From the NCBI GenBank assembly GCA_964014485.1, contig CAXHAT010000120.1:1-24601 (forward strand): a stretch of DNA of 24,601 nucleotides, read 5' to 3'. The notes under the pieces were generated by a model, which did no database searches, was not told the origin of the DNA, and worked only from the letters and a program-made list of their open reading frames with translations. Positions 724-24,601 of the stretch are shown piece after piece (positions within the stretch are counted from its first letter, which is position 1; every line of letters begins with the position of its first letter). Made by a program: the position numbers and the translations under genes. The DNA comes from an uncultured Deferribacteres bacterium (lineage in GTDB: Bacteria; Zhuqueibacterota; Zhuqueibacteria; Zhuqueibacterales; Geothermadaptataceae).

Positions 724-823
724 CCGCAGCCCGCTTTTTAGCGATTCTTACATCTCTCGTTCGCTCATATTTAAGCCCCGGTTTTACGCGCTTTGGGCAA
801 CAAAGCGTTACAAATAAGCCAAG

Positions 824-1774: not shown

Positions 1775-1776
1775 GC

Positions 1777-7374: not shown

Positions 7375-7656
7375 TTCATTCCTCCGTGATAAACCCCAAA
7401 AGACCGAGACTTTCTTGTCCCGGCTGATCATGGAATCTCGCTGTTCTTTACTTCCAGTCCGGCCAAATGGTCTCCATGTGTGAGGTTACGCTTCGCACAC
7501 GGTTGAAGAAACCCGATGCATCGCGCCTCTACAATATGGCCTTGTTTCACGAGAATCATTTTTTCATCAACTGAAAACTATAAATCTACACGAGTTTGGG
7601 AGCTGGAAGTCCCGGTTCATTTTGCGTTCAGGATTGGAAATCCTAAACGATCTGGG

Positions 7657-9105
7657 CTATTGCGTTCCTTCGCCAGGAGTAAAAGGCGGATCGGAAAGAG
7701 CTACCGGCGGCTTGAGAACGTTGTACAGTACAAACCCACTCGCCGTCATCGTTGTAGCGCCGACAGGCAAAATCCAGCTCTTGTTTTTTGACCAATAGGA
7801 CGGCTTTTCCAGAAACTCCCATTTTTCAGCAAACTCGACTTTTTTGAGCTTGTCAGCGAGATATTTCAAAATGGTGTCGATGTTATTTGCGACCGATAGA
7901 TTGCTCTCTTGCAATCCGGTCTTGAGATTGATCCCGACGACTTCACCGTTTTTGTTAAACAACGGCCCGCCGCTGTCGCCACTTTCCAGTTGCAAATCGG
8001 TCTCGAGAAACTGTCCTTCAAGATTATCGCCGCGAATATAGCCCTGCTTCGATTGAAAGTAATCGTCCAGCGACTGCGAACGTCCGACATTGGCCACCGC
8101 TTCCGTCGAATCGGCGTAGTTTTTCTTGAAACGATTGAAGTACTTCGGCGCCCAGAAAATGACCGGCTTGATCGGCGGGCAATCTTCTTCCACGATGACA
8201 ATCGCCAGGTCGAGATTTGCGTCCCCGCTGCCTGCCAACGGTTTCGCAATCAGACCGCTTTCTTCATATCCGGCGAAATTGATGCTGAATTCTTCTTCGT
8301 CTTCGACGACATGGTTGGCGGTCAAAAGATAGCCGACGTCATTTTTGTCTCGTGCGATGAAAAAACCCGTCCCAGGCTTGCCCGTCTCCAAAACGGCGGA
8401 ACTGGCGCGTATTTTTTCGATGGCGTACTGCGACGGATAAACTTCGTCCCACGTCGGGTAAAGATCGAGCGCGGCGGCGGCAAAAGTTTTGGCCGCGAAT
8501 TCTATAAGTGCTGAAATCGACGTTGCGTTTTGGCTGCTGCCGTCATTCCGGCTGGTGATCATGCCCAAAGTTTTGCCTGAAGCGTCAAATATGGGCAGAC
8601 CGCTCGTCGGCGCCGGCAGTGAACCGGTGACCTGAAAAGAGCCGTCGTCAGCCGAAAAGCCGGAAGCTTGTACGCTGGTCAGCGACTGGTTAGCGCCGAG
8701 CGTACGCAGTGCAGAGCTTACGGCTTGATCAGGCTGAGGGTGTTTTGTAATGGGAAGGAGATTTTTAATCGGCATTTTAACGTTGTAAAGCGCAACGCCA
8801 AGCGCTTCATCGGCTCCGAGCTTCTCCGCTTCGTAGGTTTTGCTCTTTCCGTCCAACGATTGGTAGGTCAATTTTACGTCCAGCCCCACCGAAAGCGTGT
8901 TCGGCGCGAGCAGGTAAACGTATTTTTTGCTGCGCGCTCCGGCGACGTACATGCCGTACGCCTGATTGGTTCCGTCACTCAACAATGCGTAGCTGGTTTC
9001 GATTCTTTGGTAAATTTCCGCATCGGAATTACCAGAATCTTGCGCCAACAACGGTGCGGCAATGAACATGAGCGCCAATCCAAAACGGATGCGTATTTTC
9101 AACAT
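7657..9105 (-). CDS. Exported trypsin-like (S1) serine protease with a degenerate N-terminal trypsin copy and a C-terminal hydrophobic anchor
   Basis: Signal peptide ending LLA/QD. The C-terminal domain has GTGFFI, LTANHVV, DLAI and GDSGGPL (intact triad). The N-terminal copy has PTSGLPIF but no His or Asp. Start is ATG 9105 or GTG 9114. Confidence 0.85.
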   Translation of the reverse strand: MLKIRIRFGLALMFIAAPLLAQDSGNSDAEIYQRIETSYALLSDGTNQAYGMYVAGARSKKYVYLLAPNTLSVGLDVKLTYQSLDGKSKTYEAEKLGADEALGVALYNVKMPIKNLLPITKHPQPDQAVSSALRTLGANQSLTSVQASGFSADDGSFQVTGSLPAPTSGLPIFDASGKTLGMITSRNDGSSQNATSISALIEFAAKTFAAAALDLYPTWDEVYPSQYAIEKIRASSAVLETGKPGTGFFIARDKNDVGYLLTANHVVEDEEEFSINFAGYEESGLIAKPLAGSGDANLDLAIVIVEEDCPPIKPVIFWAPKYFNRFKKNYADSTEAVANVGRSQSLDDYFQSKQGYIRGDNLEGQFLETDLQLESGDSGGPLFNKNGEVVGINLKTGLQESNLSVANNIDTILKYLADKLKKVEFAEKWEFLEKPSYWSKNKSWILPVGATTMTASGFVLYNVLKPPVALSDPPFTPGEGTQ

Positions 9106-9120
9106 TTTGCTCACCCTTTC

Positions 9121-9834
9121 TTATTCGCCGAACAACTGAATTTGATAACTAAATTGACGACCGCCCTTTTCTCCAACTCTCATCATGAAACCTTGTCCTG
9201 AAGTCAGTAAGTCGCCGGAAATCTCGAATTCGAAGGGGACGTCAGATTTCAATGCTTGAGCTTCCCAAGTTCTGAGCTTCTTGCCGTTCGCAACGGAAAA
9301 CAACGTGACGTCGACGGTCATGTCCTTGTCGGGAACAAGCGTCGTCCTTAAAACGGATTTTTCCGTGACCCCGGACGGCCTACTAAAACAGATGGGAAAA
9401 TAAACCTTACCCTTTTGCCCTTCGACTACGCCGCTTAACTCACCAATCGGCAGTTTGATGTCGGTCAAAATCCTGGAAGGCCAGGTAAAATGGTTCCACT
9501 TGGCTCCGAAGGTTTTGATGCGCGGATTCATGAAATATTGCATTTTGAGATTAAAAACGGTGGGTTTTAAGTCGGAAGGAACCGTGGAGTAGAAATGGAT
9601 CGAGATCGAGTCCGCCGCTTCTTCGGCTTTTGATGCGTCTTCAACAAAAACGAGTGAGGACAGTTTTACCTCGCCAGAGACCGGCTTCCAGTTTTTGGTG
9701 CGTACACCTTCAAAACGATTGCGATCCCTCAATTTGTAGAGGTGCTCGCGTTTGATTTGGGCTGCGACGCTGCTCGTGACAACAAGCAAAATGAAAGCGA
9801 CAAAAAATTTGGAGACGAACGTTAATCGTTGCAT
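9121..9834 (-). CDS. Secreted hypothetical protein (beta-rich)
   Basis: Signal peptide ending VAA/QI, purine-rich SD-like AGGAAGGA upstream, tight spacing to both neighbours. No family recognised. Confidence 0.75.
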   Translation of the reverse strand: MQRLTFVSKFFVAFILLVVTSSVAAQIKREHLYKLRDRNRFEGVRTKNWKPVSGEVKLSSLVFVEDASKAEEAADSISIHFYSTVPSDLKPTVFNLKMQYFMNPRIKTFGAKWNHFTWPSRILTDIKLPIGELSGVVEGQKGKVYFPICFSRPSGVTEKSVLRTTLVPDKDMTVDVTLFSVANGKKLRTWEAQALKSDVPFEFEISGDLLTSGQGFMMRVGEKGGRQFSYQIQLFGE

Positions 9835-9872
9835 TTTTCATATCCTTCCTGATTGGTCAATATCATCATCTA

Positions 9873-12800
9873 TTAAAAATCTGAACTCAAACTTACAGGC
9901 TCGGCTTTCTTGTATACCGGCGCTTTTCTCAGCCACTCACGAATGCCCGCCGCAGTCTTCCACTTTCTCACCGCGGCGTCATCTGAACCTGTGAAAACAC
10001 TCAAACCGTCAGGCGAAAACACGGCTGATTGGACGCCTGTTTCGTGGTTAAACGTCATCAGCGTATCCCCCTCGACCGACCAGAGCCGCGCGTTTGCGTC
10101 ATCTGATGCGGTGAGCACATGTCGTCCGTCCTTTGAAAATGTCGCTGACCAGACCCACCCGTCGTGTGAATACGTCGACAGCAATTCGCCGGACAGCGCC
10201 CAGAGACGCGCTGTTGCGTCAAACGACGCGGTCAAAACCGATTTGCCGTCAGGTGAAAAAGCGGCTCGCCAAACGCGATCGTCATGCGGGAAAATTGTCA
10301 GCGAGTCGCCGTCCAGCGTCCAAAGATGAGCGGCGTAATCGCTGGAAGCTGTAAGAACCATCTTGCCGCCCGGCGAGAAAACCGCCGACCAGACTTCGCC
10401 TTCATGCCAAAGCGTCAAAACGGAATCGCCGTTTGTTTTCCATAATCGTGCCGTGAGGTCGTCTGAAGCGGTAAGAACGTACTGGCCGTCGGGTGAAAAA
10501 CGTGCGGAATAGACGGGGCCGTCGTGCTCAAAACTAGCGAGGGAACCGCCGTTTTCCGACCAGCGTTTTGCCGCGCCGTCAAGCGACGCAGTCAAAATTT
10601 CCCGTCCATTTTTCGAAAACGAGACGTCATAGACCGTGCTGTCGTGGTGGAAAGTCGTTAGCAATTTTCCTTCTGACGACCACAGTTTCGCAGTTTTGTC
10701 ACGAGAAGCGGTCAACGCACGGTCGCCGGTCGGAGAAAAAATTACGTCCGTAACGCCGGCGCTGTGTTTGCGCGCTGTGATTAATCCGCCGTCCGCTGCA
10801 TAAATTCGCACTGCGCCGTCGTCGGAGCCGGTAAAAATCTGGCCGTTGTTAGGTGAGATTGCAAGCGATTTAACGCCTGCGTCATGTTCAAAAGTCGGAA
10901 TCACATCAATATTCGTCTGCCACACTCGCGCAGAGCCGTCTTTTGACGCCGTTGCAATCTGACTACCGTCCGCTGAAAAAACAACTTCTAACAGACCATC
11001 GCCATGCGCCAGAGTCGCCGCCAACGCACCGTCGAATGCCCAAAGCCTGGCGGCGCTGTCGCGGGAAGCTGTCGCCAGGAGGCTCTTGTTCTCGGAGAAT
11101 TTTGCTGAAACCGCCGCACTTCCATGTTCAAATACAGCCAATTTTTCCCCGTCGATGGACCAAAGCGCAGCGGTCGAATCTTCGGAAATCGTCAGGACGC
11201 CGCTGCCATCCAGTTGGAAAATCGCTGCGTAAACAGGGCCGTTATGTTGCAATATCCGCTGAAGTTCGCCCGAGGCGTTCCACAATCGCGCTGTTGAATC
11301 GTTTGACGCCGTCAATACGAAATTGCCGTCATTAGAAAACGCGGCTGAATTCGCCGCAGCATCATGGCGGAACAGGCCCAAGCTGTCGCCGGAGATTGAC
11401 CAAAGTCTGACATAGCCGTCTACGCCCGCTGTCAAGATCCGCTCGCCGTCGGGCGAAAAAACGGCGGCGTTGAGAGGCAAAAAGACATGGTGAGTCAGCG
11501 TCAAAGATGCAGGAGAAGAGTTGACGTTTGACCACAAAAGCGCCGCGCCGTTGTCCTGCGCCGTCAAAAGACTGGAGCCGTTCGGCGCAAAAGTCGCCGA
11601 CCTGACGCCTGCTGCGTGCTGGAGAACGTTGATCGAATCGCCGTTTCCCGACCACAATTTCACCGTGGCGTCGTCGGAAGCGGTGGCAATCAACGAGCCG
11701 TCCGGTGAAAAAACGGCCGCATTGACGGCGCTTTCGTGCCGCAAATTTGCCGTCAGGTTTCCGTCCGTCGACCATAATTTTGCAGTTTCATCGCGCGAGG
11801 CCGTCAGGAGTTTGCCGCCATTCGGGGAAAAAACAATGCTGACGATCTCATCATCGTGCAGGAATTCGTTTTGATAAAATAGCCGGGTTTCGGCGAGCGA
11901 ATTGTAGTAAATCTTGAGCAAGGTTTTTTCAGCGGCAGTCGTGGCTGCAAGACCATACGCCGCTTCAGCGACGCGAATAGCTTGCGTTCCGTCGGTTCGG
12001 AATACTTCATCGGCTTGCAACGCCAGCAGGTTGCTTTGCGCTTCTGCGGCTTCCCGGCTAGCAATCTCGCGTTGAGCCGAAGCTTCGCGCCATTGCCAGA
12101 CGGCGAACACCGAAAAAACTGCGATCAACGCCACCAGCCCCAGGCGAATTCGGCGGTTGCGCTGTCGCTCTTGCTCCAGTTGCGCTTTTCTTGCACGGCT
12201 GATTTCGAGGAGTTTTTCTTCATCAACGACAAGCCGCCGCATGCCTTCCTTGCCCTGTTCGACTATTTCCAAGTCCGCTTCATCGAGCCAGACTTCGTTT
12301 TCCTCTTTGTTAAAATCATTGATTTTGTTTTCGAGAACACGGGCCGCGCGCTGGCCGGGCTTGTCGGAATTGCTGTATTGCATGGCGACGATGGGCGCGA
12401 GGGAATCGTGGGTCAGACTGGCGCTGTCGTCGCTTTTTTGTCCGTCGGTGAGCAAGTAAAGTTCTTTGCATTTTCCGATCAAGTCATCGATGATTTCCTG
12501 ACGGTGTCGGTAATTTTTTCGAATCTCTTCTAAATCGCGGCTGCCCGCCGTGCCCAATTTTGTGGTGTGGAAATGCAGTACGTCGAGCGCCAACCCGGAG
12601 TCGACGGCGTCACTGCGCCAGGCGCGCAATTGCTGCATTTGCTGGTTGAAAAACTCGCCCATCGCCACGCCCTCTTTTTTGAGCTTGAGATATTGGTCGA
12701 TCTCAAAATGCGGCGCGGCGTGATTTTTCTTCGTTGCCAGACTCCACAATTTTGTCAGCAGAATTTGCAGAACCGGGGCGACGGGAGAGTCTTTATCCTC

Positions 12801-14408
12801 GATAAGATCATCTGCAATCATTACCGGCAGGTTCTCATCCGTGCTAAGGTTGTAGCGAACCTTGAGCTCGTGCGTCTGCGTCAGACCCCGAAAAATGTCG
12901 AGAATGTCTTTGCGCCGCAATTGCTCCAGAAAAACGGAGGTTCGGGGCAAGCGCCTCGCCCTGAATCCTTCTTCCATTTCCGGGTGATACTCTTTGCGAT
13001 AACCGAGCAATAATTTTCCGAGCGGCCTTTGTTCCGGCGTGCCGAAGACGGATTCAAGGGCGGCCAGGAAATCGTCCAGTTCATTTGGCGCCAGCGCGTT
13101 TGGGCGTGTAAAAACTTCTTCCGCCTGATCGAGAATAACAATCAGCGGCTTGCGCACTTGCAGCTCCACGCGTTTCCAAAGCGTCTCCAGATTGTCGTTT
13201 TGTGATAAATCCGTCGTCTTGAACTTTGGTTCTTCGCTGCGCTGCGTTTTGCGAAGGCGCTCGATCAACGTTTCAATTTCTTCGCGAATTTCGGCGGGAG
13301 CTTCGCTCGCTGCGGCTGCAAGTTGCTCAATTGTCTGCAGGTCGCCAGGGTCGCGCTTGTCGTTTTCGTTCGCTCTTTGCTCCGGCGGGGGCTTGTCATC
13401 TTTTTTTTCCAGTTTTTGTTCAAGAGCGAACGTCAACGATCCGGCCAAGCCTTTTTCTTGCATTCGGCGAACGTAGACGACTTCAAAATCATCTTCCAAT
13501 CGCGGCCTGAGCCCGGCGTCAAACAATGACGATTTGCCCGCACCAGACTGGCCGTAAAGCAGAATAATCGGCGGGGCGTTGCGGTCGCTGATGCGATTGT
13601 AAAGCTCACGTACATAGTACGACCGCCCGAAGAAAATCTCGGCGTGCTCGCGTTCGTAACGTTTGAGGAAAAGAAACGGCGTTTCGGGTAAGTCGTGGGT
13701 TTTGGGGATCGGCGGCAGGCCGAACAAAGGATTTTCAACCGCTTCCGGCAGGTTCCAATCCTTGACGATTTCAGCGCCCTTGCGGTAATAAATCTCCCAA
13801 GGAAAGCGGTCGCTGACCTCGGTTTTACCCTTCCAATGCAAGCCGCGATGGTTGGAGGTTCCCTTTTCGATTCTGACTTGATCGACGGCCTCGTTCCAGG
13901 CGCGATCAATGGTCAAGCCTTCGCCCAAGCCCTTGTAAAAACGAATCGACAAATTGGTGGCGACGCCGTCATCGATTTTCTGTGATGTGCCGACGACCGC
14001 CGGAACGCCCGCTTCGATCAAATCCTGCGCTTGTTGCTGCGAGCAGCAGCCGTTGAGAAAAACCAGTTGCAGACCTTTTTGCTTGGCGAGAAAAGAGACC
14101 AGGCCTTCGCTGTGGGCTGTGGCGTGTTCGCCGGAGAGCGATTCGAGCAGCAATTCATAACTGTCGGCATGGCCACCATAATGCAAAACCGCAATGCGAT
14201 CCTGATACTCCTGAAAAACGTCAAGAATGCTCTCCACCGTGGTGTTGGAACGCTCGACGACTTCGCAAAGCCCCGCCCGTCGCGCTTTTTGCAGCGCCTT
14301 GCGCACGCCGTCCAACTCGACGGGCAGATTGCGCAAATACTCGCCGCCTTCAACGCGGTCTTGCGCAAAGGCGAGGAAGATGACAGGTTTTGCGTTCACT
14401 TCGCTCAT
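9873..14408 (-). CDS. CHAT protease - nSTAND1-type NTPase - transmembrane helix - 16x WD40 (membrane-spanning NLR-like receptor)
   Basis: CHAT dyad LHYGGH80 / VFLNGC121; PF..L..Y......IFFGR; Walker A GQSGAGKS (aa 286-293); Walker B VILDQAEEVFT; winged-helix LTHDSL; basic stretch RRIR then TM LGLVALIAVFSVFAVW; 16 WD40 repeats. Confidence 0.9.
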   Translation of the reverse strand: MSEVNAKPVIFLAFAQDRVEGGEYLRNLPVELDGVRKALQKARRAGLCEVVERSNTTVESILDVFQEYQDRIAVLHYGGHADSYELLLESLSGEHATAHSEGLVSFLAKQKGLQLVFLNGCCSQQQAQDLIEAGVPAVVGTSQKIDDGVATNLSIRFYKGLGEGLTIDRAWNEAVDQVRIEKGTSNHRGLHWKGKTEVSDRFPWEIYYRKGAEIVKDWNLPEAVENPLFGLPPIPKTHDLPETPFLFLKRYEREHAEIFFGRSYYVRELYNRISDRNAPPIILLYGQSGAGKSSLFDAGLRPRLEDDFEVVYVRRMQEKGLAGSLTFALEQKLEKKDDKPPPEQRANENDKRDPGDLQTIEQLAAAASEAPAEIREEIETLIERLRKTQRSEEPKFKTTDLSQNDNLETLWKRVELQVRKPLIVILDQAEEVFTRPNALAPNELDDFLAALESVFGTPEQRPLGKLLLGYRKEYHPEMEEGFRARRLPRTSVFLEQLRRKDILDIFRGLTQTHELKVRYNLSTDENLPVMIADDLIEDKDSPVAPVLQILLTKLWSLATKKNHAAPHFEIDQYLKLKKEGVAMGEFFNQQMQQLRAWRSDAVDSGLALDVLHFHTTKLGTAGSRDLEEIRKNYRHRQEIIDDLIGKCKELYLLTDGQKSDDSASLTHDSLAPIVAMQYSNSDKPGQRAARVLENKINDFNKEENEVWLDEADLEIVEQGKEGMRRLVVDEEKLLEISRARKAQLEQERQRNRRIRLGLVALIAVFSVFAVWQWREASAQREIASREAAEAQSNLLALQADEVFRTDGTQAIRVAEAAYGLAATTAAEKTLLKIYYNSLAETRLFYQNEFLHDDEIVSIVFSPNGGKLLTASRDETAKLWSTDGNLTANLRHESAVNAAVFSPDGSLIATASDDATVKLWSGNGDSINVLQHAAGVRSATFAPNGSSLLTAQDNGAALLWSNVNSSPASLTLTHHVFLPLNAAVFSPDGERILTAGVDGYVRLWSISGDSLGLFRHDAAANSAAFSNDGNFVLTASNDSTARLWNASGELQRILQHNGPVYAAIFQLDGSGVLTISEDSTAALWSIDGEKLAVFEHGSAAVSAKFSENKSLLATASRDSAARLWAFDGALAATLAHGDGLLEVVFSADGSQIATASKDGSARVWQTNIDVIPTFEHDAGVKSLAISPNNGQIFTGSDDGAVRIYAADGGLITARKHSAGVTDVIFSPTGDRALTASRDKTAKLWSSEGKLLTTFHHDSTVYDVSFSKNGREILTASLDGAAKRWSENGGSLASFEHDGPVYSARFSPDGQYVLTASDDLTARLWKTNGDSVLTLWHEGEVWSAVFSPGGKMVLTASSDYAAHLWTLDGDSLTIFPHDDRVWRAAFSPDGKSVLTASFDATARLWALSGELLSTYSHDGWVWSATFSKDGRHVLTASDDANARLWSVEGDTLMTFNHETGVQSAVFSPDGLSVFTGSDDAAVRKWKTAAGIREWLRKAPVYKKAEPVSLSSDF
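9960..11858 (-). repeat. Array of 16 WD40 coding repeats, about 40 aa (120 nt) period
   Basis: Consensus H-x-x-x-V-x-S-A-x-F-S-P-D-G-x-x-x-L-T-A-S-x-D-x-T-A-R-L-W counted 16 times from HDDEI to HETGV. Confidence 0.9.
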
Positions 14409-14439
14409 TTCGAATGATCATTAAGCAATGGTTTGGAGT

Positions 14440-14561
14440 TCGTTCCCAAACTCCGGTTTGGGGATGAAAATGGGCGAGAAACTCCGGTTTCGAACCAAGG
14501 AATTCACTCGAAACTGGAGTTTCGAGTACAATTGCGCTCCCAATCCAGAGATTGGGAGCGA
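14440..14561. repeat. REPIN/MITE-like element of four short hairpins arranged as a nested inverted repeat
   Basis: TCGTTCCCAAACTCCGGTTTGGGGA; GAAACTCCGGTTTC (14478-14491); ACTCGAAACT-GG-AGTTTCGAGT (14506-14527); CGCTCCCAATC-CAGA-GATTGGGAGCG (14535-14560). Outer and inner units are mutually inverted. Confidence 0.85.
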
Positions 14562-14655
14562 GAGTATTGGGCGTCTCGAAATTAGATTGCCAGTAATGAC
14601 TTTGACAATCGGTTGCTGTATTATAGGACTTGGGCGTAACATCAGTCATTGAATG

Positions 14656-17600
14656 TCACTTCGTATTCACCTGCTCAACGCCTTGCCAGTCTTCCGGGAC
14701 GCCCTTAACAACGTATTGCGCGGCGCGCTCCAGATAAAGTTTGGCGGCTTTATCCTTCGGGCTGATTTTCAAGACGTTTTCAAAAGAAACAACGGCGCGG
14801 GCGAATTCTTTTACAAAATAGCTGGCAAGCCCGTTCTCAAAATCTTCCTTGGTTTTAAGCTTCAATGCCAAGACGTCATCGGGATCACCGTCGTAAACTT
14901 CGTAAAGCGATACAAAATCGTCCTTTCCAACGACCTGAATCTTGCCTAAAAACCGCGTATGATAACTGTCACGATCCTTGAGTTCGCGTGAAGCCGCTTC
15001 GCTTATGATAATTGAAACGCCGTATTGTTTGCACAGGCCTTCAATGCGATTGGTCAGATTGACGGCGTCTGAGAAAATATCGCCCTGCAAGCGTTCTTCT
15101 TCCCCGACAATGCCCAGCATCAGTCCGCCCGAGTGCAAACCGACGCCGATCTCAATGGGTTGTTGAGATTTCTTTTCTCGCACCTTGTTGAATTCCTGAA
15201 GCTGGCGCAAAGTCTCCAAGCTGCTTTGCAAAGCGTCATCCACGCTCCGAGGGAAAATCGCCATGATCGCGTCGCCGGTGTAGCGGTCAACGAAGCCGTG
15301 GTTTTTCCTGATTAGCGGACTGACCAGGCTGAAATAAGCGTTAATAAAATTAAAATTTTCAGTCGGCGTCATCTTCTCGGAAATGGTCGTAAAACGACGA
15401 ACGTCAGAGACAAAAATCGCAACGTCCATCTCAACATGATCGCCCAATTTCACGTCGACGATGCTTTCTTTTTGGAGATAACGCAGGAACTCATGCGGCA
15501 CAAATTTGCCCATCGCCGAATTGATTTTGAGCAGATTTAAATGCGTCTTAATACGCGCGAGCAGCTCGTCTTTGGAAAACGGCTTGGCGAGATAATCGTT
15601 GGCGCCGGAAGCCAAGCCTTCAAGCAAATCCTGAACTTGATCCTTCGCAGTCACCATGATCACCGGCATTTCGCTTGCCAAATGTTTCCGGCGAATCTTC
15701 TGGCAGACTTCGTAGCCTGACATTCTCGGCATCATAACGTCGAGCAAAACAAGATCGAAACGTTTGCCTGAGTCAATCAACTTCAACGCTTCTTCCCCGT
15801 CCGCCGCGTGGGTGAAAGCGTAATTTGTTTGCGAAAGATGGTTAGCCAAAACCAATTGGTTGATCGGCTCATCATCCACCAATAGAATGCTAAAATCGCC
15901 ATGCTCGTTCGCCAGAAGAAATTGCTTTTCCAATTTCGCAAGATCGTCGTGCGCAAGCAACTCCCCGGCGTCGCGAACCCTGGCCAGCCGCGATTCTGTG
16001 GTCGGCGCTGCATTTCCCACGGAAACCGGAATGGAAAAGCTGAATGTTGATCCTTCGCCGATTTTGGATTCGAGCCAGATTTCGCCGCCGTGCAATTCCA
16101 CCAACTGTTTTGTCACCGCCAGCCCCAACCCCGTCCCGCCGAAGGCTCTGGCCGTGGAAGCGTCCGCTTGCTCAAAAAATTTGAATATCGTTTCGAATTT
16201 GTCTTCGGGAACGCCGATTCCCGTGTCTTTGACCGCGACTTCAACACGACCGTTTTTTTGAATCGCCGAGACGACGACGGAGCCTTCGTGAGTGAATTTT
16301 ATCGCGTTGCCGACAAGATTATGCAAAATTTGCTGCAGACGGTTCTCATCGCCGTCCGCCGCAGGAATATCCGCTGGAATTTCGTTTTTGAGCGCAACAG
16401 ACTTACCCTTCGTCAGCGGCTCGCTGAGCTTCATGACAACGTCGGTGAGCACGCGTATATCGACGGGCCGCTTGTCGATCTGCAAATCATGGCTTTTCAA
16501 TTTTGAGAAATCCAAAATATCATTCACTAAAGCCGTCAGCCGCCTGCCGGAGGAGGCAACCATTCGCAGATTGGAGCGTGTTTTTACCGGCGGATCGTCT
16601 TCAAAACTGTCAATCAACGACTCGGTGACGCCAAGAATGCCGTTCAGCGGCGTGCGCAATTCATGCGAAGTGTTCGCGAGAAATTCGTCCTTCAGTTTGT
16701 CTACGCGGCGCAGTTCAGCGGTGACTTTTTGCTCTTGCTCCAACTCCCGGCGCTTAAAGCTGAGTTCGCGCGCCTGAGCTTGCGTCCGGAAACGAATATA
16801 TCCCCAAATCGCGCTGATGAATAGAAGCAGATAAAAGGCGTAAGCCCACATCGTGCGCCACCACGGCGGCGTGATAATGAGCGTGAGTTTGGCGCCGTCT
16901 TCGTTCCAAACGCCGTCGTCGTTTGAGCCGCGAACGTTCAAAGTGTAAGAGCCCGGAGAAAGGCTGGTAAAAGTCGCTCGTCGTTCGGTTCCGAGTTGAA
17001 TCCAGTTTTCATTCAAGCCGTCGAGCTTAAAGGCGTACTGATTTTTGAACGTCTTGCGATAATTGAGCGCCGCGAATTCAAAGGTCAGAATTTCATCTTT
17101 GTATGAGAGTGTGATCTCATCGCGATACGCGACGCCTTTTTCATCAATGGCGGTCCCTTCGGCTATGTCTGAGTTGTAGCGCTTGAGTCCGGTAATTTGA
17201 ATTGGGGGAACGTGATGATTGTCGCGAATACTGTCCGGCGAGAATACGTTGAAACCGTTGATTCCGCCAAAGTACATTTTTCCGCTGCGGGTGAGAAGGC
17301 AAGCGTTTGCGTTAAATTCATTGCTTTGCAAACCGTCGCGCGCCTGGTAATTCTTGATTTCTCCAGTTTCAGGATTGAACTTGATAATTCCCAGGTTAGT
17401 GCTCAGCCAGAGATTGCCGTGATCGTCCCCAAGCACGCCGTAGATGACCTCGTTCGGCAAGCCGTCTTTTTTTCGAAATCGCGTGAACGCGCCGGACTCG
17501 CGGTCGAAACGATTCAGCCCGCTGTTGGTGCCGACCCAGAGCACGCCGTCGGGAGTTTCATAAATGCTCCAGACAGAATTGTTGCTCAAGCTCCGGTCGT

Positions 17601-19296
17601 CCGCCGGATCGTGCTTGAATCGGGTGAATTCTTCGGTTGCGGGGTCAAATTTATTGAGACCGGCTTCGGTGCCAAGCCACAGGATTCTTCCGTTTTCGAC
17701 GAGCGACTCGTGAATAATCCAGACGCCGTCTGAACCCAAACTTTTGCTATTGGCGGCGTCATGTCGGAAGTGTTTGAAACGCCCAGTCTTCGGTTCGAAG
17801 CGATTCAGGCCGCCGCCCCAGGTTCCGAGCCACAGCACCCCGGGTTCCGCTTCGCGTTCGTGAATGGATGTCACCCAATTGTGACTCAAACTGTTTGCGT
17901 TGTTTCCGAGGCGTTGAAAATTTTGGAAATTTCCGGTGCTGCGATCCAATTGGTTCAGCCCGCCGTTTCTCGTGCCGATCCACAGCGTTCCAGCCCTGTC
18001 TTCAAAAACCGCCCAAACGGAATTATCGTTCAACCCGCGACCAGTTTGCGCCGACCGTCGATACTGTTCCTGAAAATTTGCATTCTGGTCAAATTTGTTA
18101 AGCCCGCCAGTCAAAGTCCCCACCCAGATCGCGCCGTCGCCGTCTTCGTGGAAAGCCCAAATCGCATTGTCGCTCAAGCTGCGCGGATTCTCAGGGTCTT
18201 TTTGGACATGCTGGAATGGAAACGGTTCATGCTCAAAGCGGTTGAGTCCGGCGCGGGTTCCAATCCACATCCCGCCTGAGCGATCTTGCGCAATTGAAAA
18301 GACGTCGTTGACCGACAGGCTTTGCGGATCTTTGGGATCGTGTTGATGGTGGGTGAATTTCTCTGAATCGAGGTCAAATCGATCAAGCCCGCCGCCTTGC
18401 GTACCAATCCAAAGCGTTCGTTCCTGATCGAGGTACATGCAGCGAATATTGTCGCTGCCTAAACTATTCGGATCACCGGCGACGTGCTTAAAATGGCGTA
18501 TGTTATCGTTTTTTTGATCGATCCGAAACAAGCCCGATCTTGTACCAACCCACAGTATTTTCTCACCTGCGGCAGGTTCTTCAACAATTTCAGTTATCCA
18601 GGCTTGATTTAAAAGCGGCGAAGAAGATTGAAAAGGTCGCAAAACTTCGGCGGCGCGGTCGAATTGCTTGAGTCCCTTTTCTGTCCCGACCCACAGAACG
18701 CCGTCGCGGTCTTCGTAAATGACATCCACCCAATTGTGCGCCGCGTTGTTTGAGTCAGAGGCGGCATAGTAAAAACGTGTAAATTCGCCGGTTCCGGGTT
18801 CAAACCGATTGAGACCATTGGACGCGCCAAGCCAAAGTTCTCCTCTCTTGCTCTCGAAAAAAGCCAGGATGTAATCGCTGCTAATAGTCCGCGTATTTGT
18901 CGTATCATAACGAAAATACGAAAAGCTTTCGCTGACCGGATTGAACAGATTGAGTCCGCCGCGACGCGTGCCAATCCAAAGGTTTCCAGATAGGTCTTCG
19001 AAAATGGTCTCGATCCAGTTATCGCTCAGTCTTCCCCGGTTCTGTGAATCATGCGTATAAGTCTTAAACGCATAGCCGTCAAATCGATTCAACCCTTCCT
19101 GGGTGCCAAACCACATGAAACCGTTGCGGTCTTGAATTATGCTCTGAATTGTATTTTGCGACAACCCCAATTCGGAATCGAAACGCTCGAATCGCACTTT
19201 GTTATTGGACAAAGCCGGCTGGAGATAAGCGCACACTAACAAAACAAAGACGCTTGCAAAAGAAACAAGAGCTTTGGACGAGAAGCCAGTTCTCAT
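14656..19296 (-). CDS. Hybrid sensor: 14x Reg_prop beta-propeller, Y_Y_Y, TM, HisKA, HATPase_c, REC and class III adenylate/guanylate cyclase
   Basis: Repeats such as LSDNWIETIFEDLSGNLWIGT; YAFKLDG..ENW..LSPGSYTLNVRGSN.DGVWN; PPWWRTMWAY TM; H-box FLANTSHELRTPL; NLVGNAIKFT, DTGIG, GGTGLGL; REC LLVDD..LLDVMMP..AKPF; cyclase SDVRRFT, DRYTGDA, SDAVNLTNRIE. Start is ATG 19296 or GTG 19353. Confidence 0.92.
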   Translation of the reverse strand: MRTGFSSKALVSFASVFVLLVCAYLQPALSNNKVRFERFDSELGLSQNTIQSIIQDRNGFMWFGTQEGLNRFDGYAFKTYTHDSQNRGRLSDNWIETIFEDLSGNLWIGTRRGGLNLFNPVSESFSYFRYDTTNTRTISSDYILAFFESKRGELWLGASNGLNRFEPGTGEFTRFYYAASDSNNAAHNWVDVIYEDRDGVLWVGTEKGLKQFDRAAEVLRPFQSSSPLLNQAWITEIVEEPAAGEKILWVGTRSGLFRIDQKNDNIRHFKHVAGDPNSLGSDNIRCMYLDQERTLWIGTQGGGLDRFDLDSEKFTHHQHDPKDPQSLSVNDVFSIAQDRSGGMWIGTRAGLNRFEHEPFPFQHVQKDPENPRSLSDNAIWAFHEDGDGAIWVGTLTGGLNKFDQNANFQEQYRRSAQTGRGLNDNSVWAVFEDRAGTLWIGTRNGGLNQLDRSTGNFQNFQRLGNNANSLSHNWVTSIHEREAEPGVLWLGTWGGGLNRFEPKTGRFKHFRHDAANSKSLGSDGVWIIHESLVENGRILWLGTEAGLNKFDPATEEFTRFKHDPADDRSLSNNSVWSIYETPDGVLWVGTNSGLNRFDRESGAFTRFRKKDGLPNEVIYGVLGDDHGNLWLSTNLGIIKFNPETGEIKNYQARDGLQSNEFNANACLLTRSGKMYFGGINGFNVFSPDSIRDNHHVPPIQITGLKRYNSDIAEGTAIDEKGVAYRDEITLSYKDEILTFEFAALNYRKTFKNQYAFKLDGLNENWIQLGTERRATFTSLSPGSYTLNVRGSNDDGVWNEDGAKLTLIITPPWWRTMWAYAFYLLLFISAIWGYIRFRTQAQARELSFKRRELEQEQKVTAELRRVDKLKDEFLANTSHELRTPLNGILGVTESLIDSFEDDPPVKTRSNLRMVASSGRRLTALVNDILDFSKLKSHDLQIDKRPVDIRVLTDVVMKLSEPLTKGKSVALKNEIPADIPAADGDENRLQQILHNLVGNAIKFTHEGSVVVSAIQKNGRVEVAVKDTGIGVPEDKFETIFKFFEQADASTARAFGGTGLGLAVTKQLVELHGGEIWLESKIGEGSTFSFSIPVSVGNAAPTTESRLARVRDAGELLAHDDLAKLEKQFLLANEHGDFSILLVDDEPINQLVLANHLSQTNYAFTHAADGEEALKLIDSGKRFDLVLLDVMMPRMSGYEVCQKIRRKHLASEMPVIMVTAKDQVQDLLEGLASGANDYLAKPFSKDELLARIKTHLNLLKINSAMGKFVPHEFLRYLQKESIVDVKLGDHVEMDVAIFVSDVRRFTTISEKMTPTENFNFINAYFSLVSPLIRKNHGFVDRYTGDAIMAIFPRSVDDALQSSLETLRQLQEFNKVREKKSQQPIEIGVGLHSGGLMLGIVGEEERLQGDIFSDAVNLTNRIEGLCKQYGVSIIISEAASRELKDRDSYHTRFLGKIQVVGKDDFVSLYEVYDGDPDDVLALKLKTKEDFENGLASYFVKEFARAVVSFENVLKISPKDKAAKLYLERAAQYVVKGVPEDWQGVEQVNTK

Positions 19297-19343
19297 TAAT
19301 TTGATCAATCTGCTATTTTTTGTTCTGAATTGCGAAATAGATC

Positions 19344-19563
19344 GTTTCGACACTCTCTACCTGACACTTTTTGTAAACTGTGTTTCCGGGCCGTCTAAAG
19401 GCCGCGTTTTGTCATTCTGGAGGAATCTTTGTTTTCGCCCAGTGCAGATCATGCTCAAAAGTTCAAGGGTCGGATCAAAAAAGATGCTTCCAGCATGACA
19501 ATTCCGGCCTCTTTCGCCAGTTTTAGAACCCTATACAAAGTGTCAGGTAGTGAATTTCGACAC
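19344..19563. mobile_element. About 220-bp MITE/REPIN-like long palindromic element
   Basis: Perfect 14-bp IR CTACCTGACACTTT (19357-19370) / AAAGTGTCAGGTAG (19537-19550); inner IR 19410-19430 / 19480-19500 (TGTCATTCTGGAGGAATCTTT, 3 mismatches); flanking direct repeat TTTCGACAC at 19345-19353 and 19555-19563. Confidence 0.7.
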
Positions 19564-19649
19564 AATCTCCGTCCCAAACGCATGGGATGGTTTGCCTTGG
19601 ACTTCGTTAAATCTTCTCTACATTCGGCAAATCTGTAAATACTAAATGG

Positions 19650-19868
19650 TGTTACGCACGGCAACGTACATCCTGAATCTTGGAGCAACTATCGTCTCAT
19701 TAGCGCCTGGCTTCAGCCCGGAGATGCACGAATCGCTCATTTTCATCTCTTCCGCCGCGCCTGCGCGGCGGAAGAGATGGGACAGCCGTCTTCAAAAATC
19801 TCCGTTCTGAAGAGCGGAGCTAATGAGAATCAAAAGTTGTCCCAGACTCTGACCGTCCGTGCGTAACA
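19650..19868. mobile_element. Second long nested palindromic element (REPIN/MITE-like)
   Basis: Terminal IR TGTTACGCACGG (19650-19661 / 19857-19868); TCTCATTAGC / GCTAATGAGA; CTTCAG / CTGAAG; CGGAGAT / ATCTCCG; central perfect 17-bp stem 19744-19760 / 19763-19779. Confidence 0.75.
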
Positions 19869-19900
19869 TCAGATCCTAAAACTCTTTCAGGAGGTGGATA

Positions 19901-20185
19901 ATGCCGTCAGAATCAGGGACAATAACGTTCGTAAATTTAAGTGAGTTTGAAGCCGGCATTTACGTTCAAGACGAGAACGGTGATGAAGCGCACGTTGTCG
20001 ATTTAATGCCCGGGCAATCTTCCGAGCAAGAAACGGTTGAAGATGAGGTCTGGATCATCAAGGACAAAGAACTGGATCAGCAAGTCGGAACGGCTTATGG
20101 CACAAGCGGTCAACAAACCCATGAGATAAAATTTCGCCGTGGTCGCAGCGGCCCGGAAGCAAGCGGTTCCGGCGGCGGCAATTGA
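19901..20185 (+). CDS. Small acidic protein with a VHL beta-domain-like fold and a Gly/Ser-rich tail
   Basis: Strong SD AGGAGGT (19889-19895). ITFVNLS...IY..DENG......L.PGQS..Q.T.....WIIKD aligns without gaps to the VHL beta-domain pattern F.N.S......W....G....Y..L.PG......S...H.W..RD. Confidence 0.65.
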   Translation: MPSESGTITFVNLSEFEAGIYVQDENGDEAHVVDLMPGQSSEQETVEDEVWIIKDKELDQQVGTAYGTSGQQTHEIKFRRGRSGPEASGSGGGN

Positions 20186-20233
20186 TACAAGTTTTTCCCA
20201 AATTTACCATTGGGGCGCAGCAGTAAACTGGAG

Positions 20234-23200
20234 TTACCAACTCACTTCCTTCAACGCCTTCTGTCCAACTTCTGAGATAAAATAATTCAAGTGGTGGCAA
20301 GCGATGCGCTCTTGCTTTGGCGCGGGGTTGCGCTTGTCGCTCACGTCAATAATGCTGTCCACACTGACGGCGATGTCATGCGTGCCGCTGCCAAAAAGCG
20401 CGGACATGACAATACCTTGTCCCGCTTTCGCCAGCATTTTGGGAAAGAACTGATCTGACGGCTCTTCGTATTCTTCGACATTCCCTGCCAGAATCGTGTA
20501 GCGAACGCCCGGATCGTCGCTGCTATTGAGTTCGGTCATGAAATCGGAAGAAGGATTCATTTGCTCTAACGTCGGCGTGATCTTTTTCGAGCGATTCAGT
20601 AAAAACATAAGCGCGCCGTTAAAAGGCACAAGCGCCGGGATATAGTTCATCGCCACGCCGGTGAGCATTTTGAAAATTTTGCGCGCCGTCTCGATTTTGC
20701 CGAAAGGGGAGCCGTTGTTGGGCGTGCCGCACATGACCAGATGATCCACCATGGCATTGCCGCCTTCGCGCTCAATAAACCAGCGCGACGCCAAGCCGCC
20801 CATCGAATGCGCCAAAACCGTCAACTTTTTGTTGTCATCTTTTCCAAAGCCGACGGCGGCCAGTTTCTTCTTCAAATCAAGCGCCGTCTTGCTGATCGGC
20901 GTGCTCAAGTTTTCATAATCGAACGTAAGCACCAAGTCGAAATCTTCATTCAACTTTGCTTGGTGCAGCCCTTCCGCAATTACCTGTGTATCGCCGATGA
21001 TCCCGTGCACCAGAACCGCAACATTTTGCGCTTCGCTCACTTTTTCAGCCACGCCGGACTTGCGCCGGGCTACGGTTCCGTCGTCCTTGAGCTCCACCCA
21101 ACACAATTGATTGACATTGTCGTGCTTTAGGTACGTCTTAAAAAAGTAGAGCTTAAGCGCTTTGCCCAGGCTGCGGCGATTGTCCGGAACCTCGGGAATA
21201 TGATCGATGCTGATGTGCGTGTTTCCGCTGTCGTCCTTATGAACGTCCCCGCCCAGCATGACGTGCTCGCCGTCGTAGACCAGCGGAAGAATGCCTTCAT
21301 TTTCATCGAGGGGCACATTCAGATCGATCTCCAAGGGATTCTCCGCCAGCGCTTCATCATTTTCAATATCCGTGATTTCGAGAATGCTTTCGCTGTCGCC
21401 GCGCGTTCCAGCAAAGTTCATCATCTGCAAACCTTGCCGCTCAAAAGCCTTGTAGAAATCATCACCGTCCCCCACGCTGCGAGAGGCCGTTTTAGCCGCG
21501 GCAAGGCTGAGATTGCCTTTCAAGTTGGGGTGTCCCTTAATGACGATTTTTCCATTCGCCAAAGCGGCATCGTTCGCGCCTGCCTGATCGAGTTGGCGGA
21601 CAACGCGTACTCGCATGCTCTTGGTGAACCAATCATTGCGACGAATGATTTTCCTCCTCGGCTTCACTGTGCCCAGCCCACCGCGAGACGCTCCGCCAAG
21701 TTCGATGAATTCTCCGAGTTCCAATTCGTCCTGAGTGAGTAAAAAATCATCCACACGCTCGGTGCTGACAATCAATTTAAAGTCCACGATGATCTCGTTT
21801 TCTTCATCGTCGAGATAAAAGTAGTCTTCTTCATCTTCGCCCCAGAGTGTAAAATAGCTCTCGCCCGGAGGTGCAGGATCGTTACGCAGAATATAAATGC
21901 CATAGGCGGGAGAGAAATAAGCTAGAACAAAATGCAACTCTTGACTGGTACGATTGCGAACTTTGATTTTTCCTCGAATTTCTGGCCAGTCTTCTCCAAC
22001 CTTTCGGAAATCAAGCGCAATCTCTCCTTCCGGATAAATGTGCTCCTGACCGTCGTCCTTATCTTCAGCATAGACAAAATCGACTTGTGACGCATCCAAT
22101 CGCGCGCTTTTGTTTTGCAGCGCCAAACTTCTTTCCCACTGCGCCACTTTCTTGACGACGCCGTGCATCGTCTGCGCTGATTCTTCAGAATAGCCTGCGC
22201 CTTTCACGCCTTGAATAAGCTGATCGAGCTCGAGTCGTTTAAGCAAAAATTCGCCGTTTTTCGCGCTTATGCCATAACTCGCGCCTCGCGCCGAATCCGT
22301 CAATTCGACGCCGACGGACGGGTTGAGTGATTTTCGGAGCGCCTCTTTACCCTGTTCATCGCCATCGACATACACCGGCAACGGCGCGGCGGGCAGGCTC
22401 GTCATTTCAGCGTAGTAGCGCGCTGATTCGTCTCCGGTAAAATCAAGTTTCAACTCGCTTTTCTGCGCACCAACCTGAATCGTTTGAGCACGTCCCGCAA
22501 AAGTTTCCTGGGCGTCTTCCGGGTAAAGCGCGAACGCAGCATTTTTCTCCGGATCAGTCGGCAGTCCGTGTAAGGCGCCGCAGTCAACCGTCCAGTCGCC
22601 GTTCTTAAAATAAACACTGTAACGCCGTGCATCATGGGAAGCTTCGCCGCCGAAGACGCCGCTAAAAGCGTTAAAATGCTCAAGCGCCTCGAATTGCGGA
22701 GTTTGGTTGTCCACTTCTTTTCGCATTTCCGCCCTGCAGCGCATGAACAGGTCGGCGTAGGAAATGTCGCTGCCGGACTTGTCGAGCACATTCAAAAAAA
22801 TGCTGGTGAACAGACCGCTGCGATCTTTGGTTTCAAACGCCTTTTGCTTGCGGTCGCAGGCGGCGAGCAGGATGTGCTTGCTGCGGGGGATGGAGAGCGC
22901 GGCGCCTTTTTTCTTTCGCTGTGCATAATAGCCGTCGAGATAGCTGTCTAACGGGCGTTCTTGAAAGACCTCGTGCGTTTGTCGCGTTTTGAGGTGCGTC
23001 ATTGAATCGGCGTCGCGGGTGGCGGAGCCGGAATGACAGCAATCCAGTAGTACGGCAATATGCGGATCGTTTGCCGCCAATTCAGAAAGCAGGAGCGCCA
23101 ATTCCTTGTCAGCCAGATCAAAAGGGTACGCGCCGCCTTCGGTTCGGCTGTCGAAACAAACCAACCCTTCATCCTTGCCGTCCGGATAAAACTCGTGAAA

Positions 23201-23479
23201 CTCTTTTGCCGCGCTCCAGCGTGCGCCGTGCCCGCAATACTGGAAAATCGCCACGTCTCCGGAACTCGCCTTTCCAAGATGAGAGCGAAACTGTTTGATG
23301 ATATTGTCGCGCGTTGCATCGCCGTCTTTCAGCATTTCAACGGCGAGCGCGTCCTTTTTGAAATGATCCGCCAGGTAAGCGTGAAAATTATCAACGTCAT
23401 TCACACATCCGGCCAGACGGCCAACCTCGGGCGTATATTCGTTTATGCCGACGAGCAATGCATAAATATTCCTGGACAT
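20234..23479 (-). CDS. Caspase-family (peptidase C14, meta/orthocaspase) protein fused to a C-terminal alpha/beta-hydrolase (lipase/PGAP1-like)
   Basis: YALLVGINEY, LAGCVND, ATRDNI, YCGH84G, LDCC148HSG, HILLAAC, QTPQ. C-terminal VLVHGIIG, AHS892MGG, GTPNNGSP, HDIAV, CHHLNYF. No signal peptide. SD GGAG upstream. Confidence 0.92.
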   Translation of the reverse strand: MSRNIYALLVGINEYTPEVGRLAGCVNDVDNFHAYLADHFKKDALAVEMLKDGDATRDNIIKQFRSHLGKASSGDVAIFQYCGHGARWSAAKEFHEFYPDGKDEGLVCFDSRTEGGAYPFDLADKELALLLSELAANDPHIAVLLDCCHSGSATRDADSMTHLKTRQTHEVFQERPLDSYLDGYYAQRKKKGAALSIPRSKHILLAACDRKQKAFETKDRSGLFTSIFLNVLDKSGSDISYADLFMRCRAEMRKEVDNQTPQFEALEHFNAFSGVFGGEASHDARRYSVYFKNGDWTVDCGALHGLPTDPEKNAAFALYPEDAQETFAGRAQTIQVGAQKSELKLDFTGDESARYYAEMTSLPAAPLPVYVDGDEQGKEALRKSLNPSVGVELTDSARGASYGISAKNGEFLLKRLELDQLIQGVKGAGYSEESAQTMHGVVKKVAQWERSLALQNKSARLDASQVDFVYAEDKDDGQEHIYPEGEIALDFRKVGEDWPEIRGKIKVRNRTSQELHFVLAYFSPAYGIYILRNDPAPPGESYFTLWGEDEEDYFYLDDEENEIIVDFKLIVSTERVDDFLLTQDELELGEFIELGGASRGGLGTVKPRRKIIRRNDWFTKSMRVRVVRQLDQAGANDAALANGKIVIKGHPNLKGNLSLAAAKTASRSVGDGDDFYKAFERQGLQMMNFAGTRGDSESILEITDIENDEALAENPLEIDLNVPLDENEGILPLVYDGEHVMLGGDVHKDDSGNTHISIDHIPEVPDNRRSLGKALKLYFFKTYLKHDNVNQLCWVELKDDGTVARRKSGVAEKVSEAQNVAVLVHGIIGDTQVIAEGLHQAKLNEDFDLVLTFDYENLSTPISKTALDLKKKLAAVGFGKDDNKKLTVLAHSMGGLASRWFIEREGGNAMVDHLVMCGTPNNGSPFGKIETARKIFKMLTGVAMNYIPALVPFNGALMFLLNRSKKITPTLEQMNPSSDFMTELNSSDDPGVRYTILAGNVEEYEEPSDQFFPKMLAKAGQGIVMSALFGSGTHDIAVSVDSIIDVSDKRNPAPKQERIACHHLNYFISEVGQKALKEVSW

Positions 23480-24450: not shown

Positions 24451-24601
24451 ATTGACGCCTTTGTATTCGTCCTTGATTCTTAAGGAAAGGCAAGATAGCT
24501 CAAAAATACAAGCTAATATACTTTCCATGACAAATCAAGTACAACTATTTAGTGTCCATCCGTAGCTTGTTCAACTCTATGATAAACAATATTTTACTTA
24601 C

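Follow-up and report, generated by a model that had tools for sequence, protein, structure and literature searches.

Protease-gated death effectors have recently risen as a major logic of bacterial immunity, and several described systems resemble the one considered here. In the conflict systems treated by Kaur et al. (2020; PMC7159879), the cited passages place an alpha/beta-hydrolase gene always next to the caspase domain, and these systems are reported to be enriched in multicellular bacteria. The nSTAND1 NTPases were named, and caspase and trypsin heads listed for them, by Kaur et al. (2021; PMC8195603). A Lysobacter hydrolase zymogen has been described that receives two cuts between Arg and Gly from an adjacent caspase-like protease, after which the cell is killed; caspase-like proteases of that kind carry fused STAND or beta-transducin sensors (Evans et al., 2025; bioRxiv 10.1101/2025.11.14.688446). 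Apaf-1-like bacterial STANDs with caspase-like heads have also been noted (Nature 2026; PMC13581612). The STAND receptors characterized so far detect their ligands intracellularly, and the effectors on which they act are small, separate proteins. In the current work, we analyzed a stretch of 24,601 nucleotides from an uncultured bacterium of the phylum Zhuqueibacterota (assembly GCA_964014485.1, contig CAXHAT010000120.1, positions 1 to 24,601; hereafter the window), which contains a gene for a caspase-lipase fusion (hereafter the effector) and a gene for a CHAT-nSTAND1-WD40 receptor.

According to our analysis, the core of this locus is a two-gene, proteolysis-gated lipase effector module operating under a membrane-spanning, protease-headed STAND, a reading to which we assign a probability of roughly 0.55. 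Bacterial immunity is known to include protease-triggered cell-death modules, and the present one looks like a variant of these. The preliminary description of the locus had joined its genes into one cascade of about 16 kb; the robust unit is smaller and consists of the effector and the STAND receptor.

As in the LcCaspase-LcHydrolase module (PMC7159879; Evans et al., 2025), a sensor-fused protease of the caspase superfamily lies here beside a lipase-like hydrolase; the linkers carry motifs of the Arg-Gly type, and the expected logic is that of a latent death effector freed by site-specific proteolysis. However, LcHydrolase, as presented in the cited passages, is a small stand-alone protein (~30 kDa), whereas the hydrolase of the window forms the C-terminus of a 1081-aa fusion that also contains an intact metacaspase-like domain and beta domains amounting to about 500 aa. 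The sites of LcHydrolase lie within the hydrolase fold, whereas the candidate sites reported here, at which cleavage is predicted only, are located upstream of it. Unlike that of the LcCaspase module, the partner is usually predicted to span the membrane, and DUF7379 is likened to LcHydrolase by description only. With the nSTAND1 conflict NTPases, including those diversified by diversity-generating retroelements (PMC8195603; PMC10907252), the receptor shares the combination of nSTAND1 with caspase or CHAT heads and repeat sensors; in contrast to the proteins described in the cited passages of those papers, it has a transmembrane helix between the NTPase and the WD40 repeats, and a caspase-DUF7379 partner is absent from these passages. 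The combination of an NTPase, WD40 repeats and a caspase-family output, with an initiator-to-executioner logic, recalls the Apaf-1-like STANDs and the apoptosome (PMC13581612), but Apaf-1 and the characterized antiviral STANDs sense in the cytoplasm, whereas here a periplasmic position is predicted for the propellers, and a lipase forms part of the executioner. Finally, the two-gene EACC1 system (PMC7159879) likewise pairs a constant component with a caspase-headed variable protein, and some of its members have transmembrane or extracellular domains; unlike in EACC1, as covered by the cited passages, the constant component here is a large cytoplasmic caspase-lipase, and the EACC1 single-transmembrane protein is absent.

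The name DUF7379 occurred in no paper found by our literature search, and in these searches, whose scope did not extend to supplementary tables that might list members, both the fusion and its membrane-spanning partner appeared undescribed. A search of PADLOC-DB v2, including its Avs and Pycsar models, gave no system-level match: the STAND had 0 matches and the effector matched a generic “caspase” model only. The novelty assumed in the preliminary description is therefore to be narrowed to the architecture, which is not in PADLOC and whose DUF7379 part is in no paper found; caspase/hydrolase pairs and protease-headed nSTAND1 proteins are already in print.

The effector gene (20234-23479, minus strand) encodes 1081 aa with a Peptidase_C14 domain (80.7 bits; Pfam cut-off 21.4), beta domains and a DUF7379 alpha/beta hydrolase (50.8 bits; cut-off 33). 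The metacaspase-like C14 domain comprises residues 1-270, with H84 at 23228-23230 and C148 at 23036-23038; the beta-rich middle, consisting of several domains, extends over residues of about 285-800; and the lipase-like hydrolase covers residues of about 815-1081, with S892 at 20804-20806, D1035 at 20375-20377 and H1063 at 20291-20293. These five residues were invariant in all 117 aligned effectors, across which the full-length architecture is kept. At least 586 related proteins were found at E ≤ 0.001, with 53–72% identity over the full length among the 120 matches listed. An AlphaFold2 model based on the 117-sequence alignment (predicted local distance difference test score, pLDDT, 83.8; predicted template modeling score 0.75) displayed a caspase fold, beta domains and an alpha/beta hydrolase. 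In Foldseek searches, the N-terminus matched GSU0716, plant, yeast and trypanosome metacaspases and MALT1, with 3bij and the metacaspases 9n3d and 6w8s at the top, and the C-terminus matched the bacterial lipases 4hs9 and 7cof. A shorter, hydrolase-less effector, matched from residue 1 to ~630 with the DNA running on for 10 kb, was observed at loci L059, L060, L064, L066, L067, and L096; at least at L060, a C14-nSTAND1 gene lies directly downstream of it.

The receptor gene (9873-14408, minus strand) encodes 1511 aa with a CHAT head (PF12770; 38.7 bits, cut-off 24), an nSTAND1 NTPase at residues 244-671 (PF20703; 96.0 bits, cut-off 27.1) and 13 Pfam WD40 stretches, corresponding to about 13-14 blades at residues of about 820-1500. 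The CHAT dyad consists of H80 (14169-14171) and C121 (14046-14048), both invariant in 24 of 24 aligned sequences, and the Walker A motif GQSGAGKS lies at 13530-13553. The NTPase is a divergent nSTAND1, scoring 96 bits vs. about 300 for the C14-headed partners found at other loci. Hydropathy revealed a single transmembrane helix at residues 754-772 (12093-12149), located between the NTPase and the WD40 repeats and preceded by RQRNRRIR. The domains listed in the preliminary description for both proteins, together with their catalytic residues (H80, C121, C148, and S892), were thus borne out by Pfam and by the alignments.

The two genes are linked well beyond the window. Caspase-DUF7379 genes were confirmed at 376 loci in species-representative genomes, and the neighborhood counts refer to 80 of these, kept with 10-kb flanks and belonging to Planctomycetota, Burkholderiales, Sphingomonadales, Acidobacteriota, Calditrichota, Bacteroidota, Desulfobulbaceae, and others. 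The confirmed loci include records of Variovorax and Pacificimonas. Genes were called as six-frame open reading frames (ORFs) with Pfam annotation; our ORF caller errs in high-GC loci, for which tblastn and Pfam compensate in part. A STAND-type partner was present within 10 kb of the caspase-DUF7379 gene at 49 of the 80 loci, often directly downstream (33 by tblastn with CHAT, 5 by the NTPase only, 10 as members of the STAND BLAST cluster and 1 as a Pfam nSTAND1 protein with a kinase head). No more than 100 bp lie between the effector stop codon and the start of the CHAT gene at a minimum of 11 loci. Many of the CHAT-less partners are Peptidase_C14-nSTAND1-TPR/WD40 proteins according to Pfam, with C14-nSTAND1 heads at L038, L050, L056, L058, L060, L071 (two copies), and L077. 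Thirty-one loci lacked a partner, and 19 of them have <3 kb of downstream DNA. When 812 neighboring ORFs were clustered without regard to labels, the STAND was the sole broadly recurring neighbor (31 loci in one cluster), followed by the Reg_prop kinase (8 loci), a 515-aa weak-trypsin protein (5), Exo_endo_phos (4) and GH19-like (4) proteins. This recurrence across genomes is what the preliminary description had proposed to look for, and it supports a functional link between the CHAT-STAND-WD40 and caspase-lipase genes.

It could be argued that the two genes are chance neighbors, since in the window they are separated by large gaps and an inserted gene, and large genomes generally hold many STAND and WD40 genes. 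However, the pairing recurs in many phyla and its gaps are often ≤100 bp. Furthermore, the 8.4-Mb genome of the organism itself contains one DUF7379 gene and three nSTAND1 genes above the cut-off, one of them ~6 kb from the DUF7379 gene, so that the clustering exceeds chance. We regard neighborhood without any functional link as very improbable.

Several loci have further genes between the effector and the STAND, namely GH19-like ones in KSB1-type genomes or Exo_endo_phos ones in KSB1, Calditrichia, and Planctomycetota (L016:4154-5161, L014:6679-7632, L008:9756-10844, L051:13354-14439); these may be accessory parts. The 515-aa weak-Trypsin_2 protein is encoded on the opposite strand after a second STAND at 5 loci, including L016:9512-11059 and L014:781-2328.

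A FastTree phylogeny of 56 full-length effectors separated a basal Bacteroidota/Aminicenantes clade of 7, partnerless in the flanks, from a main clade of 49, in which 39 have a partner. The tree departed from taxonomy, with a gammaproteobacterial sequence amid Planctomycetota and with Acidobacteriota grouped with Burkholderiales; this conflict points to horizontal transfer of the module. Within the phylum of the organism, the effector was found in 14 of 167 genomes, including the unpublished G016 and G023 (12 of 165 without them). The partner type, CHAT or C14, was weakly clustered on the effector tree (16 changes vs. 22.2 when shuffled), and therefore we do not claim co-evolution.

The effector model also indicates where a protease could act. 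The pLDDT fell below 50 in just two segments, which are predicted to be disordered and which we consider candidate protease sites. In loop A (residues 596-614, GASRGGLGTVKPRRKIIRR; 21638-21694, minus strand), one alignment column holds R in 97 of the 117 sequences and K in 19; the next residue is G in 60 and A in 43. Loop B (residues 667-672, RSVGDG; 21464-21481, minus strand) begins with R667, conserved in 116/117, and the residue after it is G in 73 and S in 30. A third motif, R693-G694 (21398-21403, minus strand), keeps R693 in 111/117 and G694 in 117/117. The disordered linkers with Arg before a small residue are, judging from the model, places where a protease could cut. In P0023 and P0024, three to seven tandem AAVPTR[AS] units are present at loop B (effector 660-676), which looks like a multiplied cleavage site.

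The cutter of the Arg loops might plausibly be either the STAND head acting in trans or the effector's own domain, and we favor a two-step scheme that includes both. A self-contained effector would cleave its own Arg loops, either in cis or from one copy to another, while the STAND would serve to nucleate it or its CHAT head would cut another substrate. Metacaspases and MALT1 cleave after Arg or Lys, and the resemblance of the N-terminal domain to these Arg/Lys-specific proteases matches the Arg motifs; its dyad, H84 and C148, is invariant, and the motifs persist in the STAND-less basal clade. On the strength of this likeness and this persistence, self-processing at the loops is equally possible as cleavage by CHAT. 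On the other hand, the partner heads keep their own dyad without exception and are the best-conserved part of the receptor, which is unexpected for a mere scaffold, and the published hydrolase zymogen is described as being cut in trans by a sensor-fused protease (bioRxiv 10.1101/2025.11.14.688446). We therefore consider a fully self-contained effector rather unlikely. A complex prediction for CHAT residues 1-235 (24 alignment rows) and effector residues 455-1081 (117 rows) gave scores of 0.24 and 0.30 against a mark of 0.32, in a control-free comparison that weighs on binding in neither direction.

For the proteolysis-gated module as a whole, the following sequence of events can be proposed. 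The STAND would be a single-pass receptor, with the CHAT and NTPase parts on the cytoplasmic side and the WD40 propellers on the periplasmic side. An extracytoplasmic cue would lead to NTP-dependent oligomerization, and the CHAT head would become activated by proximity. It would then cut the cytoplasmic pro-effector after Arg in the two loops (at about R599 and R667, and perhaps at R693), and the metacaspase-like domain of the effector would process further copies, which would constitute an initiator-to-executioner step. Once the effector is cut, its inhibitory N-terminal part would no longer hold back the C-terminal lipase-like hydrolase, which would then be free to attack membrane lipid, leading to cell death or growth arrest. 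In KSB1-type genomes, the receptor may have gained periplasmic accessories: a 237-aa protein (P237), a trypsin-like protease and Sortilin/type IX surface proteins. These accessories, the Reg_prop kinase and a small acidic protein probably condition or regulate the signal. A more far-reaching version would be an outside-in “apoptosome,” in which a cue is received by the periplasmic WD40 part, having been pre-processed in KSB1-type bacteria by the trypsin/Ig-like pair in the manner of Toll and Spaetzle, and its signal, carried across the membrane through oligomerization of the NTPase, is passed from CHAT to the metacaspase and on to the lipase; we consider this version doubtful.

The placement of the sensor is central to this scheme. 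The NTPase must be cytoplasmic and the transmembrane helix follows it; consequently, the WD40 sensor is predicted to be periplasmic, and it probably lies outside the cytoplasm, which fits the outside propellers assumed in the preliminary description. With a crude hydropathy rule (Kyte-Doolittle mean ≥1.7 over 19 residues), a helix was detected at the equivalent place in ~30 of 38 partner STANDs, CHAT- or C14-headed alike. Receptor paralogs had identities of 76–83% in CHAT, 40–62% in the NTPase and 36–51% in the WD40 part, and the first-STAND orthologs of G015 and G012, members of one genus, had 95, 89, and 75%, respectively. Genomes with two receptors carry one effector, and this, together with the constant CHAT head, fits several sensors feeding one substrate.

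This topology is also relevant to the function of the module. The same two genes might form a non-antiviral switch for death or differentiation that senses the envelope or neighboring cells, for example, in kin or contact recognition, in the response to a predator or lytic enzyme or in developmental lysis. Such a role is favored by the predicted outside position of WD40 in most partners, by the periplasmic trypsin, P237 and type IX surface proteins conserved alongside in KSB1, by the syntenic, periplasmic Reg_prop kinase, by the lack of a PADLOC system match and by the enrichment of related systems in multicellular bacteria that is reported in part of PMC7159879. However, the patchy occurrence of the effector (14/167), the conflict between its tree and taxonomy and the adjacent toxin-antitoxin genes are typical of mobile defense genes. 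We regard the non-antiviral role as a tentative alternative of somewhat low probability.

Several observations weigh against the proteolysis-gated two-gene module. The effector and the STAND do not form one operon in the window, where the kinase gene is inserted between them, with an 880-bp gap on the effector side and a 248-bp gap, filled with hairpins, on the STAND side. Twelve loci with ≥3 kb of downstream DNA are STAND-less, two of them carrying C14-TPR proteins, and the loci are mostly metagenome bins, some of which may duplicate the G-numbered genomes of the phylum. No STAND-borne protease is needed for the Arg motifs, since the STAND-less basal clade (7 of the 56 tree rows) retains them as well. 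The transmembrane and signal-peptide calls come from hydropathy and inspection alone. An outside-facing sensor is atypical, since the characterized antiviral STANDs bind phage proteins in the cytoplasm, and given the lack of a PADLOC system match, a defense role is assigned by analogy only. Lastly, no Lysobacter-named protein was present among the 120 listed of 383 shorter DUF7379 matches, and kinship with the published hydrolase family is putative.

Downstream of the receptor gene, the window contains a set of genes for predicted periplasmic or secreted proteins, all on the minus strand. P237 (9121-9834) had no match in Pfam and 0 matches in PADLOC. It has a predicted signal peptide and two beta-sandwiches (model pLDDT 80.6). 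The preliminary description had called it VHL-like, a label left unsupported by our searches: fold searches with Foldseek and VIA-align returned generic beta-sandwich matches with Z up to 9.8 (DUF3244, macroglobulin MG, Ig/FnIII) and listed no VHL entry. A protein-atlas search provided no usable lead (best feature score 0.81; structural template modeling score ≤0.45). In a database of 5.8 billion proteins, 12 homologs were found, the few named ones coming from KSB1-type bins. The next gene (7657-9114) encodes a Trypsin_2 protein of 485 aa (74.6 bits) with a predicted signal peptide. Its N-terminal half is trypsin-like and degenerate (SGLPIFDASGKTLGMI vs. GDSGGPLFNKNGEVVGIN), and the C-terminal half is, as far as its residues indicate, the active one: H268 (8311-8313), D302 (8209-8211), and S381 (7972-7974) are invariant in 5/5 sequences. 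A weakly hydrophobic C-terminal segment (7705-7782) is conserved in the same five-sequence alignment. The last gene of the set (2821-7431), beyond the interval of the preliminary description, encodes a Sortilin/BNR protein of 1536 aa with a Por_Secre_tail, i.e., a type IX secretion substrate according to Pfam.

Close P237 homologs were present in 5 of the 167 phylum genomes (G000, G001, G012, G015, and G020), and the order STAND-P237-trypsin-Sortilin/BNR was kept in all five of these KSB1-type genomes; the Sortilin match in G001 was weak, and the Sortilin neighbor in G012, G015, and G020 was identified by tblastn and Pfam. In each of the five, a caspase-DUF7379 gene shares the contig with the STAND and lies no more than ~10 kb away or, in G020, at a contig edge. 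G000 and G001 carry it upstream of the STAND. In G012 and G015, it comes after the Sortilin genes and is itself followed by a GH19-like gene and a second STAND; that the effector-STAND linkage outlasts this rearrangement argues for function. In G012, a gene for a PD-(D/E)XK nuclease, PDDEXK_3, is inserted between the STAND and P237 (L011:9226-10038). Three other genomes of the phylum encode distant P237-like proteins. One of them, G049, has the order P237-like, an unassigned gene, Trypsin_2, an outer-membrane barrel and BNR/Sortilin, and lacks a STAND; because the set exists there on its own, it looks like a pre-existing envelope module that was joined to the receptor in one lineage.

Between the receptor and the effector, the gene at 14656-19353 (minus strand) encodes a hybrid kinase of 1565 aa with Reg_prop, Y_Y_Y, HisKA, HATPase_c, Response_reg and Guanylate_cyc domains (Pfam), the class III cyclase domain lying C-terminally at about 14914-15456. 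Its syntenic counterparts in KSB1/Calditrichota-type loci had 44–50% identity over the sensor region, vs. 36% for the best paralog in its own genome, which contains 17 Y_Y_Y kinases above the cut-off; the counterparts are therefore orthologs and the synteny is real. The receiver-cyclase output was found in the window kinase only and in none of the syntenic counterparts. A paralogous kinase (G000:C138:9190-11646) has 50% identity over the C-terminal half only, from Y_Y_Y to the cyclase. The domain comparison suggests that the receiver-cyclase output was swapped between kinase paralogs. The cyclase partly matched PycC models of PADLOC-DB v2 (E 5e-13), and no Pycsar effector gene was found; an assignment as a Pycsar enzyme was rejected in favor of the output domain of a hybrid kinase. 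Next to the kinase gene, a small acidic protein of 94 aa (o94; 19901-20185, plus strand) is encoded behind an AGGAGG ribosome-binding site, divergent from the kinase gene and convergent with the effector gene. Homologs with 45–61% identity lie beside the effector or the kinase at L020, L031, L040, L054, and L073, and also at L014 and L016.

These distributions bear on the cascade of the preliminary description taken in its fullest form, in which all seven genes within 7657-23479 would act as one obligatory protease and second-messenger pathway. The conserved STAND-P237-trypsin-Sortilin order speaks for it, as do the orthologous kinase and o94 beside the effector in other KSB1/Calditrichota-type loci. 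However, only 1 of the 80 loci of the wider set had matches to the window trypsin and P237, in contrast to the effector-STAND pair, which occurs across phyla; the P237-trypsin-BNR set of G049 is STAND-less, the syntenic kinases are cyclase-less members of an abundant family, and hairpin-filled gaps separate the units. Of the proposed cascade, the effector-STAND link holds, whereas linkage to trypsin, P237 and Sortilin is confined to KSB1-type genomes and the cyclase to the window. One obligatory pathway is improbable, and a cascade of seven genes would be conceivable, at similarly low odds, only as a KSB1 elaboration.

In accordance with the preliminary description, the five large genes of 7657-23479 are co-oriented, all on the minus strand. 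The effector and kinase genes are 880 bp apart, the kinase and STAND genes 248 bp, the STAND and P237 genes 39 bp, the P237 and trypsin genes 7 bp and the trypsin and Sortilin genes 225 bp. Short hairpin elements occupy the gap at 14409-14655 and part of that at 19354-19900. Four of them, REP-like (repetitive extragenic palindrome) or terminator-like, were read off the sequence at 14440-14570; lying between the kinase and the STAND, they probably set apart distinct transcription units. A search for sequencing runs listed three DNA entries from one study and no RNA entry. The caution expressed in the preliminary description, that the genes may not form one operon, is upheld by the inserted kinase gene and by the two larger gaps. 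Its term “REP-like” is a fair name for the hairpins, but the repeat search found no repeat family common to the intergenic gaps, and the families listed were mostly within WD40 and Reg_prop coding repeats. GC-rich arrays of short hairpins are seen at 14440-14570 and 19690-19830 (e.g., CCAAACTCCGGTTTGG and CTCCCAATCCAGAGATTGGGAG), and a 46-nt imperfect inverted repeat (19330-19375/19532-19577) lies between the kinase and o94 genes. Two further ORFs were rejected as genes: one of 99 aa (14350-14649), which covers the hairpin array and runs into the start of the STAND gene, with no family or related-locus match, and one of 101 aa (23443-23748), which overlaps the effector start, has no family match and occurs in none of the related loci.

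Directly upstream of the effector gene, a TumE toxin gene (23828-24178, minus strand; PF20126, 85 bits, cut-off 23.4; PADLOC PDC-M44B, E 1.3e-15) overlaps by 16 bp an upstream ORF of 121 aa (24163-24528, minus strand); the two are probably a toxin-antitoxin pair, which agrees with the neighbor named in the preliminary description. At the other end, 1-2595 (plus strand) contains a gene for a HIT-family hydrolase and two for ABC peptide-type permeases, ordinary housekeeping genes that form the left border of an island-like region.

Overall, our analysis describes a family that is widespread and distinct in having two caspase-family proteases in series with a lipase and a receptor predicted to sense outside the cytoplasm. 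The unit available for testing comprises two genes, not seven. Should the outside-in apoptosome prove true, it would mean transmembrane innate-immune signaling and a true caspase cascade in bacteria. If the proposed steps of the two-gene module hold, a function would be assigned to DUF7379, and the family would offer a tractable bacterial model for transmembrane NLR-like signaling and for cascades of initiator and executioner caspases.

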